Shown: piece by piece, positions 3,468 to 26,375 of the stretch
Position numbering within the stretch: the stretch's first letter is position 1
How the letters are laid out: each line of letters starts with the position of its first letter
DNA from: Kluyvera sp.
GTDB lineage: Bacteria > Pseudomonadota > Gammaproteobacteria > Enterobacterales > Enterobacteriaceae
Direction of reading: 5' to 3'
Length of the DNA stretch: 32,000 nucleotides
Assembly: GCF_047971185.1 (NCBI RefSeq)
Contig: NZ_JBKDZH010000031.1
Location: forward strand, 1,415-33,414
The notes under the pieces: model-generated
Told to the model about the DNA's origin: nothing
Database searches by the model: none
The model's input: the letters and a program-made list of their open reading frames with translations, nothing else
Made by a program: the position numbers and the translations under genes

Positions 3468-4661
3468 ATGACGGAACAAAAAGAAAACTCCGCCGTGGTT
3501 GAAGACTCCGGGGACGTGGTGAACACCGCGCCGCAGCCCGAGGTTCGTAAGCCAGAAAATGCTGAGAAGAAAAATACCGGCGGGAAAACCAGTCTGGTGC
3601 TGAGCGCCGTTGCTATCGCCATCGCGCTAGCGGCGGGCGTCGGCCTGTACGGCTGGGGCAAGCAGCAGGCCGTCAACCAAACCACGACCAGCGATACTCT
3701 CGCCAATCAGCTCGTCGCCCTGCAAAAAGCCCAGGATGCGCAGAAAGAGGCGCTGGAAGCCACCATTAAACAGCAGGCCGAACAGCTGGATGCGGCGAAA
3801 GCGCAGCAAAGCGAAATGGCTAAGCAGCTGGATGAAGTGCAGCAGAAAGTGGCCGCCATCTCCGGCACCGATTCAAAAACCTGGCTGCTGGCCCAGTCCG
3901 ACTTTCTTGTGAAGCTGGCTAGCCGCAAGCTGTGGAGCGATCAGGATGTGACCACCGCCGCCGCGCTGCTGAAAAGCGCGGATGCCAGCCTCGCGGATAT
4001 GAACGATCCAAGTCTTATCACCGCGCGTCGGGCGATTACCGAAGATATCGCCAGCCTCTCCGCCGTGTCACAGGTGGATTTCGACGGCATTATTCTGAAA
4101 GTCAATCAGCTGGCCAATCAGGTGGATAACCTGCGTCTGGCAGACAACAATACCGACGATTCGCCGATGGACAGCGACGACGGCGAGCTGTCGGCATCGC
4201 TCAGCGAATGGCGCGTCAACCTGCAAAAAAGCTGGCAGAACTTTATGGACAGCTTTATTACCATTCGCCGCCGTGATGAAACAGCCGTTCCGCTGCTGGC
4301 GCCGAACCAGGATATCTACCTGCGTGAAAACATTCGCGCCCAGCTGCTGGCCGCATCGCAGGCGGTGCCGCGCCATCAGCAGGAAACCTACAAGCAGGCG
4401 CTGGATAACGTCTCTACCTGGGTACGTGCCTACTATGATACCGATGACGCCGCCACGAAAACGTTCCTGAACGACGTCGATCAACTCAGCCAGCAGAGTA
4501 TCGCCATGGACGTTCCGGAAACCCTGCAAAGCCAGCCGATTCTGGAAAAACTGATGCAGACCCGCGTGCGTAACCTGATGGCGCAGCCCGCTGTTGCTCA
4601 GCCTACGGCAGAGCAACCGGCCGCCGCAGAACCTGCGCCAGCCCCAGCGCAAGGAGAGTAA
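3468..4661 (+). CDS. hemX: HemX family membrane protein
   Basis: [12 protein letters not shown]... with an N-terminal TM segment ([22 protein letters not shown]), a Q/A-rich coiled region and a Pro/Ala-rich tail. The E. coli-like start is the second in-frame ATG at 3468; the track starts at 3456. Confidence 0.9.
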
Positions 4662-19936: not shown

Positions 19937-21195
19937 CGCCAGACTCCTTTGGTATCCACGATGAACTGCTGGGCAACCGCGTCGCCGCTGATAGCCTTAA
20001 ACTGTGCGTGATCCACCAGCATGACGATCACATCCGCGCTGGCCAGCGCCGTCTCGAGCGATACCAGCGAGCACAGGCCGTCGAGCTTTTTCGGCAGCTG
20101 ATGAATATTTGGCTCAACCACCAGCGTTTCACCGCTGTGCCACTGGGCGATCAGCTCGGCGATCTCCATCGCCGGGCTTTCACGCAGGTCATCAATATTC
20201 GGTTTAAACGCCAGCCCGAAGCAGGCGATTTTCAGCTCGCTGGCGCGTTTGTCGCTGGCGGCCAGGCAGTCGGCGACGTTGGCTTTCACCTTGTCGATCA
20301 CCCAGAACGGTTTGTGGTCGTTCACTTCGCGCGCGGTGCGGATCAGGCGCGCCTGTTCCGGGTTCTGCGCCACGATAAACCACGGGTCGACGGCGATACA
20401 GTGACCGCCCACGCCCGGGCCTGGCTGGAGAATATTGACGCGCGGATGACGGTTCGCCAGACGAATCAGTTCCCAGACGTTAATCCCCTGATCGGCACAG
20501 ATCAGCGACAGTTCGTTGGCAAACGCGATGTTAACGTCGCGGAAGCTGTTTTCCGTCAGCTTGCACATTTCGGCGGTGCGGGCGTTGGTCACCACGCACT
20601 CGCCTTCGAGGAAAATGTTGTACAGCTCGCTGGCGCGCGCGGAGCACACCGGCGTCATGCCGCCAATGACGCGGTCGTTCTTAATCAGCTCAACCATCAC
20701 CTGCCCCGGCAGCACGCGCTCCGGGCAGTAGGCGATGTTGACATCCGCCTGTTCACCCGCCTGCTGCGGGAAGGTCAGGTCCGGGCGCATCTCGGCCAGC
20801 CAGCCGGCCATCTGTTCGGTCGCGCCGACCGGCGAGGTGGATTCGAGGATCACCAGCGCGCCTTTTTTCAGCACCGGCGCAATGGAACGCGCCGCCGCTT
20901 CGACATACACCATATCCGGCTCATGATCGCCTTTAAACGGCGTCGGCACGGCGATCAGGTAGGCATCCGCCGCTTCCGGCGTGGTGGTCGCCCGCAGATA
21001 GCCGCCCGCCACCGCCGTTTTCACCACCCTGTCGAGATCGGGTTCGACAATATGAATTTCACCGCGGTTGATGGTATCCACCGCGTGTTGATTGATATCG
21101 ACACCCACCACCTGCTTTTGCCGTGAGGCAAACGCCGCCGCTGTAGGAAGGCCGATATAGCCCAGACCGATCACCGAGAGGGTAGAGAAACTCAT
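19933..21195 (-). CDS. wecC: UDP-N-acetyl-D-mannosamine dehydrogenase
   Basis: 420 aa with the N-terminal NAD-binding motif [10 protein letters not shown]. It belongs to the UDP-sugar dehydrogenase family and has an ATGA overlap with wecB. Confidence 0.94.
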
Positions 21196-22322
21196 AACGT
21201 TACCTGATTATTTTTTAATGCTGCCAAAATACGTTCGCATGCCCGGCCATCCCCGTAAGGGTTATGGGCCCGGCTCATCCTTTGATATTCTTCGTCATCG
21301 CGCAGCAGGCGCGTGACGTCATCCACAATGCGTTGGCTATCCGTTCCCACCAGCCGCACCGTACCGGCATCGACGGCCTCCGGGCGCTCGGTGGTATCGC
21401 GCATCACCAGTACCGGCTTGCCCAGCGCGGGCGCTTCTTCCTGAATACCGCCCGAGTCGGTCAGGATCAGCCACGCGTGGTTCATCAGCCAGACAAACGG
21501 CAGATAGTCCTGCGGCTCAATCAGCATCACGTTGTCGATATGGCCCAGAATGCGGTTCACCGGTTCGCTGACGTTCGGGTTCAGATGCACCGGATAGACA
21601 ATCTGCACGTCCGGGTTGGTCGCGGCGATTTCGGCCAGCGCGTGACAAATTTGTTCAAAGCCCTGGCCAAAGCTCTCGCGGCGGTGGCCGGTAACCAGAA
21701 TCATCTTTTTGTCGCTGCTCAGGAACGGGTAGCGCTGGGCGAGGTCAGCACGCAGCCGCTCGTCGTTCATCACCCGATCGCGTACCCAGAACAACGCATC
21801 AATCACCGTGTTGCCGGTGACGAAAATGCGCTTATCCGACAGATTCTCTCGCAGCAGATTCTGGCGCGAGGTTTCAGTCGGCGCGAAGTGATACATCGCC
21901 AGGTGCCCGGTGAGCGTACGGTTCGCTTCTTCCGGCCACGGCGAGTACAGATCGCCGGTGCGCAGCCCCGCTTCCACATGGCCAACGGGAATGCGCTGAT
22001 AAAAGGCCGCCAGGCTTGCGGCGGCGGTGGTCGTCGTATCGCCATGCACTAACACGACGTCCGGTTTAAACGATTCCAGAACGGGCTTCAACCCCTGCAG
22101 AATACGGCAGGTTATTTCGGTTAAACCCTGCCCTGGACTCATGATGTTGAGGTCATAATCCGGAACGATGGAGAAGAGGTGTAGCACCTGATCAAGCATT
22201 TCCCTATGCTGTGCGGTGACGCATACTTTTGCCTCAAAATGAGGATCCTTTGCTAGCGCATGGACCAGAGGCGCCATTTTGATCGCCTCCGGACGCGTGC
22301 CAAATACAGTCAGAACTTTCAC
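21192..22322 (-). CDS. wecB: UDP-N-acetylglucosamine 2-epimerase
   Basis: 376 aa, [20 protein letters not shown]..., starting on GTG (22322-22320). Confidence 0.94.
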
Positions 22323-22378
22323 ATCGATTCTCTTCTATAGATGAACCGGGCCATAGACCCTTCATCATTGATGGGTAT

Positions 22379-23425
22379 TTACTGCGTGCGGCGACGCGCC
22401 AGTGCTACCCCAGCACCAATCAATCCGCCGACAATGCCCCACATCACCATCAGGAATACGCGGCGTGGGCTTGAGCGTTTTACCGGTTCCTCCGGCGTGC
22501 GCAAATATCGATAAGCCTGAAAACTCTTCGCCAGCGTCGGCCCCACGTTGAGGGTCGTCAGCATCGCGCGCGCCTGGTCGTACTCCAGGTCGAAGGCGGG
22601 CCCGACGGCCTGCAGGTTTTCCAGCCGTGCCTGCAGCATCGGACGCCCCAGTAAAGAAAGCTCGGAGTCCGGTAGTTCTTCCGCCGGCACGTCCGTTACG
22701 CTGCGGGTGATATTGTTCTGCTGCGCAATTTTCAGCGCCGCTTCAATGCTGTGCAGACGGCGATTGAAGATGGCCTGAGCGACCTCTTCCTGACGCTTCA
22801 CCTGCGCTTTGACCTGAATGGTGCGCGCGGCCCACGCGCCTTTCAGCTCATCATTCAGATGCCCGGCAGCGCGTTCGCTGGCAAACGCCACGTACTGACG
22901 CAGCAGGTTATTGGCGTCCGGGGCGGTTTCTGCGTTGAGCTTGACGCTGTCGCTCACGTTTTTTTGCGCATCGCCAGGGAGGAACTGAATGTCGTTAATC
23001 AGTTCATCCAGCAGCGCGGCATCGGCGCGGGAGTTACCCACCATCCGCTGTTTGTAGTAGTCCGTCTGCGACCAGAAATCACGGCGGGTGTCCCAGGACG
23101 CGAGCTGCATGACGAACTCTTTGTAAACTTCATCCATCACCGACGGCGGGGTGGTGGTGGTTGGGTTAACCTTTACGTCCAGGTTGCGCAGGAACTGCTG
23201 CTGTGAATAATAACCGCCTAACATGTTGACCGTTGGCCGGTCGGTGATCGCCGTAGAGCTCCATTCCTGTCGGGCGAAAAAGGTATAAATCAGCACCACG
23301 GCGGCAAACAGCACCGCAAGGCCGATAATCCAGTGTTTCCCCGACCACAACGCGCGAAACAGGCCACGAATATCCAGTTCATTCTCCGCACTTGATAACC
23401 GTGCTTCCGGTAATGGTTGTGTCAT
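22379..23425 (-). CDS. wzzE: ECA polysaccharide chain-length modulator (PCP-1 family)
   Basis: 348 aa with one TM segment near each end (WIIGLAVLFAAVVLIYTFF and VFLMVMWGIVGGLIGAGVAL) flanking a large periplasmic region. Confidence 0.92.
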   Translation of the reverse strand: MTQPLPEARLSSAENELDIRGLFRALWSGKHWIIGLAVLFAAVVLIYTFFARQEWSSTAITDRPTVNMLGGYYSQQQFLRNLDVKVNPTTTTPPSVMDEVYKEFVMQLASWDTRRDFWSQTDYYKQRMVGNSRADAALLDELINDIQFLPGDAQKNVSDSVKLNAETAPDANNLLRQYVAFASERAAGHLNDELKGAWAARTIQVKAQVKRQEEVAQAIFNRRLHSIEAALKIAQQNNITRSVTDVPAEELPDSELSLLGRPMLQARLENLQAVGPAFDLEYDQARAMLTTLNVGPTLAKSFQAYRYLRTPEEPVKRSSPRRVFLMVMWGIVGGLIGAGVALARRRTQ

Positions 23426-23438
23426 TACTACCCCAGTT

Positions 23439-24542
23439 TTACTTGGTTAATTTTGGATTTTTATCACTGTTACGGCGCATTCTGCGCTTCATGCGCTTAA
23501 TAAAACGCGCCACTTTCCAGGCTCGCTTAATACAATAGCCGTAAAGACCAAAAGCCATCAGGAACAGGATGAGCATGACCCACTCGGGTACAATGCGGGT
23601 GTATTCGGCAGCGACGCCGATGCCGGCAAGCAGCGCGGCGGCGACGGTAATAATCACCAGCGCCTGACGGGAGGTGAAGCCAGCACGCATGATCAGGTGG
23701 TGAATGTGCTGACGGTCCGCGGAGAACGGGCTCATGCCCTTACGCAGACGGCGGTACATGATGGCCACCATGTCCATGAGCGGAATAGCGACAATCCACA
23801 GCGCGGTAACCGGGCTAATCGGATGATGCGTCCCCTGGGTAGTTTCCAGCAGGATCCAGATAACCGTGAAGCCAATCAGCGTACTGCCGGCATCGCCCAT
23901 AAACACTTTATAGCGACGCCCCAGCACGCCCAGGTTGAGCATAATGTAAGGCAGGATGGCGGCAATCATGGCAAAACACCACATGGCGAGGCTGGCCTGC
24001 CCGTCAAACCACAGGATGAGACCAATCGCGCCAAAGCTGACGCTCGACAGGCCGCCGAGCAGGCCGTCGATACCGTCAACCATATTAAATGCGTTGATAA
24101 TTGCCCAGACGGCAAACAGCGTCAGGAAGAAGCCAAACGGGCCGAGCACCAGCTCCCACGAACCGAAAATATAGCCCAGGCTGCGCAGGTAAAGGCCCCC
24201 GGCCGTCATCATCACAATGCCAATCAGCGCCTGAATAGTCGCACGGATCTTAACGCTGATGTCATAACGGTCGTCCAGCGCGCCAATCAGCACCAGGACG
24301 CCAGCACAGGCCAGGTAAAGGTACGCATTAGGGATGTAGTAATTGGCCATCGCAAAAGTTAAGCAAATCCCTGCGTACACAGAGATGCCGCCCACAAGCG
24401 GGATAAGCCCCTGGTGACGTTTACGAAAATTAGGTCTATCCACCAAACCGATCTTTTTCGCCACCCTGCGGGCGAAAAAAAGAAATACGGTGGTGAACAA
24501 AAAAATACTGGTTAAGTCAGTACCGACGGTCAGTAAACTCAC
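23439..24542 (-). CDS. wecA: UDP-GlcNAc:undecaprenyl-phosphate GlcNAc-1-phosphate transferase
   Basis: 367 aa from the GTG at 24542 (MSLLTVGTDLTSIFLF...). It has the PNPT motifs GALDDRYD and NMVDGIDGL. It is the first gene of the ECA cluster. Confidence 0.94.
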   Translation of the reverse strand: MSLLTVGTDLTSIFLFTTVFLFFARRVAKKIGLVDRPNFRKRHQGLIPLVGGISVYAGICLTFAMANYYIPNAYLYLACAGVLVLIGALDDRYDISVKIRATIQALIGIVMMTAGGLYLRSLGYIFGSWELVLGPFGFFLTLFAVWAIINAFNMVDGIDGLLGGLSSVSFGAIGLILWFDGQASLAMWCFAMIAAILPYIMLNLGVLGRRYKVFMGDAGSTLIGFTVIWILLETTQGTHHPISPVTALWIVAIPLMDMVAIMYRRLRKGMSPFSADRQHIHHLIMRAGFTSRQALVIITVAAALLAGIGVAAEYTRIVPEWVMLILFLMAFGLYGYCIKRAWKVARFIKRMKRRMRRNSDKNPKLTK

Positions 24543-24730
24543 AATTTATACTCGCTGCGAATATTAATAGCGAAAGTATACCCACGATAGCTACTCATCA
24601 GAAGAGGAAGGCTGATGATTATTGGGGAAACTCGCCTGATTTATAACCGATTTTGCAAACTAGCTATTATTGTAGCTGTAAACCGCGATTGTCCGCGAAA
24701 AAATAGCGATGCCCTATCGGCGAAACTCCT

Positions 24731-24764
24731 AAAAACAAAAACGCCACACAATTGTGTGGCGTTT
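24731..24764 (-). terminator. Rho-independent terminator of rho
   Basis: The minus strand reads AAACGCCACACA-at-TGTGTGGCGTTT followed by TTGTTTTT, starting about 18 nt after the rho stop (24783-24785). Confidence 0.88.
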
Positions 24765-24782
24765 GTCGGCGAAAACCGCGTT

Positions 24783-25064
24783 TTACGAACGTTTCATCAT
24801 GTCGAAGAAATCGTCGTTGGTCTTGGTCATGGCCAGCTTATTAATGAGGAACTCCATCGCATCGATTTCACCCATCGGATGGATGATTTTGCGCAGGATC
24901 CACATTTTCTGCAGCTCTTCAGGCGTGGTGAGCAGCTCTTCTTTACGGGTACCGGAACGGTTGTAGTCGATAGCCGGGAAGACGCGTTTTTCCGCAATCT
25001 TACGAGAGAGGTGCAGTTCCATGTTGCCGGTACCATTAAACTCTTCGTAGATAACTTCATCCAT
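24783..25064 (-). CDS. rho: Rho C-terminal fragment, residues 327-419; an ORF starting at the native Met327 ATG
   Basis: [45 protein letters not shown]...KRS. Its ATG (25064-25062) directly abuts the TAA. No clear SD precedes it (upstream GATACCGGCTCT), so independent expression is only conceivable through termination-reinitiation. Confidence 0.4.
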
Positions 25065-26042
25065 TTAAGAGCCGGTATCGATCAGCGCGGTCGCGATGAT
25101 GGTCAGGCTGCCGCCCTCCTCCACGTTACGCGCAGCGCCGAAGAAACGCTTCGGACGGTGCAGGGCGTTGGCGTCCACACCACCGGTCAGGACTTTACCG
25201 GAAGCCGGTACCACGGTGTTGTAGGCACGCGCCAGACGGGTGATGGAGTCGAGCAGGATGATAACGTCTTTCTTGTGTTCAACCAGACGCTTCGCCTTCT
25301 CGATCACCATTTCCGCAACCTGAACGTGACGGGATGCCGGTTCGTCGAAGGTGGAAGCAACCACTTCACCTTTCACCAGACGCTGCATCTCGGTCACTTC
25401 TTCCGGACGTTCGTCGATGAGCAGAACCATCAGCACGCAGTCCGGGTGATTGTAGGCGATGCTCTGCGCGATGTTCTGCAGCAGCATGGTTTTACCGGCT
25501 TTCGGCGGTGCCACAATCAGACCACGCTGGCCGCGGCCGATCGGCGAGGCCAGATCCAGCACGCGAGCGGTCAAGTCTTCGGTAGAACCGTTACCACGTT
25601 CCATACGCAGACGAGAGTTTGCGTGCAGCGGGGTTAAGTTCTCGAACAGGATCTTGTTGCGCGAGTTTTCCGGCTTGTCGTAGTTAACTTCATTAACTTT
25701 CAACAGCGCAAAGTAACGCTCACCCTCTTTCGGAGGACGAATCTTACCAGAGATGGTGTCACCAGTGCGGAGGTTGAAACGACGGATTTGGCTGGGGGAA
25801 ACGTAGATATCATCAGGGCCGGCGAGGTAGGAGCTGTCTGCGGAGCGGAGGAAACCAAATCCATCCTGCAGTATCTCCAGCACACCGTCGCCAAAGATAT
25901 CTTCGCCACTCTTCGCGTGCTGCTTCAGGATGGCAAAAATAATGTCCTGCTTGCGCATACGGGCCTGGTTTTCCAGCCCCATATTTTCGCCGAGAGTGAT
26001 CAGCTCAGAAACCGGCGTATTCTTTAATTCGGTAAGATTCAT
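25065..26042 (-). CDS. rho: Rho N-terminal fragment, residues 1-325
   Basis: [25 protein letters not shown]... contains the primary RNA-binding domain, Walker A (PPKAGKT), Walker B (VIILLDS) and the Q-loop region ([13 protein letters not shown]). It ends at TAA (25067-25065). Confidence 0.6.
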
Positions 26043-26300
26043 AATGGTGTGGGTTCTTAAACTCGGGGTAAATCTCGAACTTAATTTGTGAATGGTATGG
26101 CAGGGTCATCCGTGCCTGTTTACGGCCATCAACTCATGTCTGTTCGCTGCCTGGTCACAGGAAAGTACGCAGAGACTGAAACGACAAGACGGAAAGAGTG
26201 ACAAGCCTGGAATTTTTCAACCTCTGACGTGGCTAAACGCGACGGGAGGTTTGGGTCAAACAAGATTCAAACAAAGGTATGTTTAAAACGAAGTCAAACT
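26043..26300 (-). promoter_or_regulatory. rho promoter and long 5' leader (site of Rho-dependent autogenous attenuation in E. coli)
   Basis: About 250 nt lie between the trxA terminator region and the rho ATG. They contain a pyrimidine-rich, C>G tract (CACTCTTTCCGTCTTGTCGTTTCAGTCTCTGCGTACTTTCC) typical of rut sites. A TTGACT hexamer at 26298-26293 (minus strand) is a possible -35. The promoter hexamers are not assigned with confidence. Confidence 0.5.
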
Positions 26301-26320
26301 TAACTTAGCACGACTAAAGC

Positions 26321-26364
26321 CGGGCGTCCAGAGTTCCGCTCAATTTAAGAACACTGAACGCCCG
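26321..26364 (-). terminator. Possible trxA terminator hairpin
   Basis: The minus strand reads CGGGCGTtCAG-(22-nt loop)-CTGgACGCCCG, an 11-bp stem with one mismatch, starting 12 nt after the trxA stop. Only a weak U-tract (GCTTTAG) follows. Confidence 0.3.
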
Positions 26365-26375
26365 AGTCGAATTGC

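Follow-up and report, generated by a model that had tools for sequence, protein, structure and literature searches.

In a 32,000-nucleotide stretch of DNA from Kluyvera sp. (contig NZ_JBKDZH010000031.1 of assembly GCF_047971185.1; hereafter the window), rho, the gene of the termination factor Rho, is interrupted by an in-frame ochre codon. TAA stands in place of Lys326, and the native ATG of Met327 follows directly. Judging from the comparison with related genomes, the stop goes back to the substitution of one base, very recently, in a rho that is intact in all other respects. We estimate a probability of about 0.5 that it is an artefact or non-representative, either an error of base calling or consensus building or a variant found only in the DNA that was sequenced. 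On this reading the stop would not reflect the working state of the organism, and the cell would make a normal Rho of 419 amino acids (aa) with an asparagine at position 336.

Rho silences prophages and antisense transcription, prevents R-loops and is essential in enterobacteria; in E. coli its essentiality is documented (bioRxiv 10.1101/2021.06.16.448654; PMC11551753). A stop codon in rho is a dramatic genotype if it is real. If it is an artefact, it would show how a record with no other flaw can come to mimic such a genotype through one substituted base.

In the window rho lies on the minus strand, at 26042..24783. Across the break this strand reads ...ATC GAT ACC GGC TCT TAA ATG GAT GAA GTT..., and the list of open reading frames (ORFs) has two adjoining entries in one frame: 325 aa at 25065..26042, with the stop counted in, and 93 aa at 24783..25064. 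A first description of the window (the sequence-only reading) had reported this arrangement, an ochre codon that splits rho at Lys326 with ATG327 next to it, and both the sequence and the ORF list bear it out.

The identity of the gene and of the replaced residue is confirmed by profile searches and by alignment with E. coli Rho structures. We compared both pieces with the Rho equivalog model (TIGR00767 / PRK09376, curated cut-off 509.45 bits). The 325-aa piece matches positions 2-322 with 571 bits and exceeds the cut-off by itself. The 93-aa piece matches positions 324-414 and aligns with residues 327-419 of the E. coli structures, from which it differs only by K336N, Q374P and E414D. Exactly one residue, Lys326, is lost to the stop. 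By sequence score the gene thus belongs to the Rho equivalog, but it does not encode one unbroken chain of about 419 aa with both the R-loop Lys/Arg and the arginine finger R366. As the sequence-only reading had also proposed, the 325-aa product lacks the arginine finger: R366 falls in the second ORF, apart from residues 1-325. The native context trxA-leader-rho-wecA is kept, with leader and terminator intact.

The features of the locus are as follows.

25068..26042, minus strand: rho codons 1-325, with the N-terminal domain, the OB-fold RNA-binding domain, Walker A/B, the Q-loop and the R-loop up to Ser325 (ORF list)
25065..25067, minus strand: ochre codon TAA, in frame, in place of Lys326; the altered base is 25067 (sequence and relatives)
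25062..25064, minus strand: native Met327 ATG, straight after the stop, UAA-AUG (sequence and ORF list)
24783..25064, minus strand: rho codons 327-419 and the native stop, a 93-aa ORF that includes the arginine finger R366 (alignment with E. coli Rho)
25035..25037, minus strand: codon 336, AAT (Asn) where relatives have AAA (Lys); second A>T at 25035, 32 nucleotides (nt) downstream of the first (76 relatives)
25025..25084, minus strand: imperfect hairpin in rho mRNA or DNA over both altered bases, rho nt 959-1018 (folding)
26043..26375, minus strand: rho leader/attenuator region between trxA and rho, intact (97.6% identity to K. georgiana over 331 nt)
24739..24764, minus strand: intrinsic terminator past rho, an 11-bp stem followed by a T-run, intact (sequence)

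Antisense to rho runs an ORF of 340 aa (window 24615-25637, plus strand). Part of it (113 aa) was annotated by the gene caller on a Logan contig from run SRR30067232, where it replaces the 3' end of rho. It is probably a shadow ORF, opposite a gene with strong codon bias.

Age of the stop and the second substitution

The 76 related Enterobacteriaceae genomes with sequence at codon 326 all have a lysine codon there, AAA or AAG. Hence a single A>T change at window position 25067 (minus strand) would account for the stop (AAA>TAA), and the alignment to close relatives upholds the lone A>T that the sequence-only reading had suggested. Across the 76 genomes 405 of the 419 Rho columns are invariant. 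The window violates two of them within a stretch of 11 residues: codons 326 and 336.

Everywhere else the protein is unchanged. Outside positions 326 and 336 the amino acids are 100% identical to those of four Kluyvera Rho proteins, including K. georgiana and K. ascorbata, with 58-84 nucleotide differences in the gene. Upstream of the stop, the window differs from its Kluyvera relatives by 44-61 synonymous and no nonsynonymous codons. In the part from codon 326 onwards, 8-21 codons differ synonymously and two nonsynonymously (326 and 336). Ten of the 12 nucleotides in rho that are private to the window are silent third positions. This pattern shows that full purifying selection acted on rho until very recently, if it does not act still.

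An old pseudogene is ruled out. Several disabling lesions and relaxed selection would be expected of one; rho has one stop only, a clean frame, a clean leader and terminator, and no amino-acid changes besides those at 326 and 336. The sequence-only reading had likewise argued against old pseudogenisation, and the codon counts on both sides of the stop agree with it. Its further statement that the locus holds no other lesions stands for the leader and the terminator; it overlooked K336N.

K336N is the second A>T. Lys336 (AAA) is invariant in 76/76 relatives, and we considered the change as a second disabling lesion. This possibility is rejected because intact Rho with Asn336 exists in nature. 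Searched with a degenerate pattern, metagenome contigs gave seven stretches that encode EEFNGTGN; in six the translated part reads as intact Rho, with Lys or Arg at 326. An Enterobacterales Rho (L105) that is 96% identical to the Rho of the window, and covered from residue 4 to the C-terminus, has Asn336, and so does a Rho fragment (P0120). K336N is thus probably a tolerated, harmless substitution of the lineage. Since Asn336 is natural in intact Rho, the TAA would be the sole disabling lesion. Our literature search for Rho K336 together with bicyclomycin found no paper in the library used.

Among species-representative genomes, the WzzE protein places the window in Kluyvera, with 96% identity to its counterpart in K. 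georgiana ATCC 51603. Across 11 kb the DNA matches that genome at only 91.9% identity, so the window comes from another species.

The rest of the window is clean. It holds no ambiguous bases, and about 28 genes are full length (hemCDXY, aslAB, yifK, the wec cluster, trxA, rhlB, gppA and rep among them). At sites where ten loci of the Kluyvera clade agree (nine Kluyvera and one further Enterobacteriaceae), the differences specific to the window are mostly transitions. TrxA, RhlB and WecC violate none of the residues that are invariant over about 75 genomes. We found no signs of a low-quality consensus elsewhere in the window. An error-prone assembly or a mutator lineage is therefore rejected: no other gene is broken, the substitution spectrum is normal and the neighbours respect their invariant residues.

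The allele and broken rho genes in public records

There is no independent confirmation of the TAA326 allele. TAA at codon 326 is absent from the JGI metagenome contigs that were scanned, and none of 5,426 complete E. coli genomes gives a 100% match to a query with either change. The exact 93-aa product and the exact RhlB protein have no record in exact-protein lookups. A 325-aa Rho cluster is not found among the top 120 clusters listed in a search with the 325-aa piece.

Exact matches to WzzE and WecA were confined to short contigs of three metagenome runs (SRR30067232, SRR30067235 and SRR33112897). Logan contigs from the first two runs (L006 and L007) equal window 20374-24954 at 100% identity, and the contig from the third (L008) is 99.88% identical to the window. 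On these matches, the same strain is present in three public metagenome runs. The contigs L006 and L007 end at window position 24954, 81 nt before codon 336.

The exact 325-aa product is found on five public contigs. Four of these merely end within codon 325 or 326, and only one has a true TAA. A recurrent K326* allele is therefore rejected: the four matches are a selection effect of looking up a protein of exact length. The remaining contig, ENA ERZ783384 NODE_201 (L001), comes from Enterobacter and reads TCC TAA ATG, with the stop at 3976-3978, on a different synonymous background. Its rho part is 98.4% identical to E. intestinihominis. The TAA sits 27 nt from the contig end in a metagenome assembly with a coverage of 8.5x. 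It may be coincidence, given the great size of the collection, a mistake in a thinly covered stretch close to the contig end, or the sign of a hotspot.

The hairpin that spans both altered bases offered a mechanism by which one event makes both changes. Its minimum free energy drops from -14.7 to -16.6 kcal/mol, and each change gains one pair. T976-A998 is a Watson-Crick pair, whereas T1008-G970 is a wobble only. A single quasi-palindrome template switch fits nt 976, but templating of nt 1008 would give C, and we reject it as the common origin of both changes. The template switch also misfits the Enterobacter contig L001, where the neighbouring C975 mismatch stays uncorrected.

Apparent splits of rho also occur in databases. 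With the 93-aa piece as query, numerous C-terminal Rho proteins that stand by themselves come up, and of the 120 listed, 52 have Met327 as their first residue (92-95 aa). We inspected nine such loci. Wherever the sequence reaches codon 326 it is AAA or AAG, and the genes are broken by scaffold Ns, upstream frameshifts, a one-base deletion in an A-run, or the contig end. On these nine loci we reject the view that the C-terminal proteins of 92-95 aa are products of split genes. The Met327-start records are gene-calling artefacts, in which Met327 is merely the first ATG on offer. The A4 run at codon 326 (TCT AAA ATG) appears to be fragile in assemblies. In the low-coverage contig ENA ERZ27234763 (L099, around positions 244-249) it is one A short and rho is frameshifted.

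Another class of broken Rho is 404 aa long and makes up 13 of the top 120 clusters listed in the search with the 325-aa piece. The six that we inspected (P0129-P0132, P0137 and P0151) have a tail in the +1 frame, with differing shift points and the same stop in the alternative frame. They come from megabase-sized NCBI contigs, one of them named Salmonella enterica. These clusters look like indel errors in deposited genomes, or possibly a real frameshifted rho. Broken rho in public records is thus usually technical.

Records of rho show further irregularities. An enterobacterial wec-rho locus stands on records titled Chryseobacterium sp. 18061 and Corynebacterium metagenome-assembled genome (among L034, L046 and L048), which suggests contamination or mislabelling. 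The rho region of Shigella flexneri SFBU1023 is only 78% identical and gapped, which suggests a noisy assembly. Among the 5,426 complete E. coli genomes there are five extra rho matches, one of them on a plasmid, and rho occurs on 20 of 72,556 plasmid records. Several rho plasmids in PLSDB are 1-5.4 Mb in size (e.g., H24, H30 and H32) and are probably mislabelled chromosomes or chromids. The smaller rho-bearing records (91-141 kb; Citrobacter, Salmonella and Enterobacter) may be genuine plasmids or misassemblies.

Explanations for the stop

What the stop would do to the protein depends on Lys326 and on the part of Rho behind it. Lys326 is the lysine of the R-loop, belongs to the secondary RNA-binding site and points into the central channel (PMC8828861). 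The K326A exchange lowers the ATPase activity of E. coli Rho by about 75%, so about 25% is kept (PMC4499133), and the Rho of M. tuberculosis and other mycobacteria has a threonine at this position (PMC4499133, PMC8828861). The side chain matters but is not strictly required. The 325-aa product alone should not be an active motor: it would lack R366 and the whole C-terminal subdomain.

We favour an artefact or a variant private to the sequenced DNA. This follows from base rates and from the lack of independent support, and a single assembly cannot separate an error from an allele. What would have to be explained is a single, very recent AAA>TAA at the R-loop codon of a rho that is otherwise conserved and maintained by selection. 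The stop is the only lesion, and the allele is unique when compared with 76 relatives, E. coli and the JGI contigs. Breaks in other deposited rho genes are mostly technical, and an essential gene with a true UAA would need rescue. The strain is otherwise seen only in metagenome runs. This is compatible with a consensus derived from a metagenome, in which single-base errors are more frequent. The one other TAA, that of L001, lies near a contig end, where errors concentrate. Four points weigh against an artefact. Apart from the stop the window is clean, and good assemblies rarely contain lone substitution errors. K336N looks real and tolerated, so this part of rho would not simply be a patch of low quality. 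The TAA in the independent Enterobacter contig L001 could mean a real, recurrent event. Finally, viable rho nonsense alleles exist in E. coli K-12 (bioRxiv 10.1101/2021.06.16.448654; PMC5449661).

If the allele is real, the cell has to cope with it. Both release factors, RF1 and RF2, recognise UAA, which as a rule leaks less than the other stop codons; hence a true allele needs an extra rescue mechanism. One such mechanism is that UAA326 is decoded as sense. An ochre suppressor that inserts lysine (a tRNA-Lys with anticodon UUA, of the supG/supL type) would restore Lys326; alternatively, near-cognate readthrough would insert Lys, Gln or Tyr. In both variants low Rho activity would de-attenuate the rho leader and raise rho mRNA several-fold, enough for full-length Rho to be made. 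The sequence-only reading had listed four explanations, all of which are weighed here. It had left out near-cognate readthrough boosted by autoregulation, although this mechanism is documented in E. coli. Like a leaky nonsense allele, the window has an in-frame stop in an otherwise intact rho, and a leader, a terminator and a C-terminal frame without damage are what a gene still in use would show. Lys326 is in part dispensable, as K326A and the mycobacterial threonine show. There are precedents. The rho-136opal allele of E. coli K-12 is viable through low-level readthrough and gives faint full-length Rho next to the truncated product (bioRxiv 10.1101/2021.06.16.448654), and L157opal makes about 40% of the normal amount of Rho through efficient readthrough (PMC5449661). 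Autoregulation amplifies residual Rho synthesis: rho expression rises 5-fold in a nusG deletion strain (PMC5909445). However, both precedents are UGA codons, and rho-136opal depends on the weak, leaky RF2 variant of K-12 (bioRxiv 10.1101/2021.06.16.448654). With UGA precedents and a UAA that is the least leaky stop, a real ochre allele more likely needs a suppressor tRNA. An ochre suppressor carries a cost, since UAA is the stop codon used most often, and the four tRNAs of the window (Pro-tgg, Leu-cag, His-gtg and Arg-ccg) include no tRNA-Lys or suppressor. Overall we regard decoding of UAA326, with all its variants taken jointly, as possible but doubtful.

Alternatively, Rho activity may be lost or strongly reduced, and the loss tolerated through compensating changes elsewhere. 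Candidates are an rpoB*35-like RNA polymerase, an R-loop helicase such as UvsW, more RNase H, or a genome free of toxic prophage genes. The rescue of a rho deletion, which is otherwise lethal, by rpoB*35 or UvsW is known (bioRxiv 10.1101/2021.06.16.448654; PMC5909445), and a 325-aa product without R366 and the C-terminal subdomain is what a deficient strain would make. Yet Rho is essential in E. coli (bioRxiv 10.1101/2021.06.16.448654; PMC5909445), purifying selection on Rho was perfect in this lineage until now, Rho is intact in all 76 relatives, and no compensating locus is seen within the 32-kb window. These points make tolerated Rho deficiency unlikely. We know of no description of a natural Enterobacteriaceae isolate without Rho.

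A two-piece Rho is a third way to live with the stop. Ribosomes would reinitiate at AUG327, and residues 1-325 and 327-419 would join non-covalently into a working hexamer that lacks only Lys326. The UAAAUG adjacency is in frame, the break falls in the channel-facing R-loop (a favourable place for a split), the missing side chain is not absolutely required (PMC4499133), and the C-terminal ORF is intact with its native terminator. The sequence-only reading had offered stop-start reinitiation as an explanation, and it finds no support here. No Shine-Dalgarno (SD) motif precedes AUG327, and we reject reinitiation driven by one: the best anti-SD duplex within 20 nt upstream has -1.7 kcal/mol. The native rho start is similarly weak (-1.4 kcal/mol). 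Most of the AUG327 region is base-paired (mean unpaired probability about 0.31). The adjacency of stop and start is inherited from the native Met327 and has not evolved. Fragments that start at Met327 in databases are all artefacts where checked, and we found no precedent for a fragment-complemented Rho. An evolved split gene or coupled pair is rejected outright, with rho split in 0/76 relatives, no JGI contig with TAA326 and no ribosome-binding site. We therefore consider a two-piece Rho very unlikely. A Kluyvera lineage with an ochre codon in its only rho gene, whose 36-kDa and 10-kDa fragments form a functional ring without the R-loop lysine, has a slim chance at most.

Lastly, a second intact rho elsewhere in the genome or on a plasmid could supply the function. 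The five extra matches in E. coli genomes and the 20 plasmid records show that additional rho genes are on record. Nevertheless, the base rate is about 0.1% or less, several plasmid matches are megabase-sized and probably mislabelled chromosomes, and the broken copy occupies the native trxA-rho-wecA locus. A second copy is extremely improbable.

The consequences differ with the explanation. If the allele is real, a wild strain must get by through suppression of the ochre codon, through a Rho in two pieces or through compensating mutations, and any of these would have genome-wide effects on transcription or translation. An ochre codon at position 326 in Kluyvera would then add to the known viable, leaky rho nonsense alleles and extend a finding from laboratory strains of E. 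coli K-12. A two-piece Rho, if true, would be a hexameric termination factor complemented from fragments, the first of its kind. If the stop is an artefact, as we favour, the case also shows that many Met327-start Rho fragments in databases are by-products of gene calling.

Comparison with known systems

The interrupted gene resembles several known systems in part. With wild-type Rho (PDB 1PV4, 3ICE) it shares the locus order trxA-leader-rho-wecA, and its two pieces are collinear with residues 1-325 and 327-419. Wild-type Enterobacteriaceae Rho is uninterrupted and has Lys336, whereas the window is broken at Lys326 and has Asn336.

The broken rho records of 404 aa and 93 aa share with the window an apparently broken essential gene and a C-terminal fragment that starts at Met327. 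They differ from it in the kind of lesion: theirs are indels, Ns and contig ends, all with Lys326, whereas the lesion in the window is a clean substitution, with no error in the rest of the 32 kb.

Coupled stop-start pairs (UAAAUG, AUGA) also place a stop directly before a start on one transcript. In evolved pairs, however, the junction is conserved and an SD motif in the upstream gene is usual. The junction in the window arises from one mutation and has neither an SD motif nor conservation.

The closest likeness in kind is to the viable rho nonsense alleles of E. coli K-12. There, as in the window, an in-frame stop lies in an otherwise intact enterobacterial rho and a truncated N-terminal product is expected. 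The survival of rho-136opal and L157opal relies on some full-length Rho together with autoregulation, and the same would be needed in Kluyvera. The K-12 alleles are UGA codons at positions 136 and 157 that come from laboratory screens and are confirmed by immunoblot, whereas the Kluyvera allele is a UAA at position 326 that is known from the sequence of one assembly.

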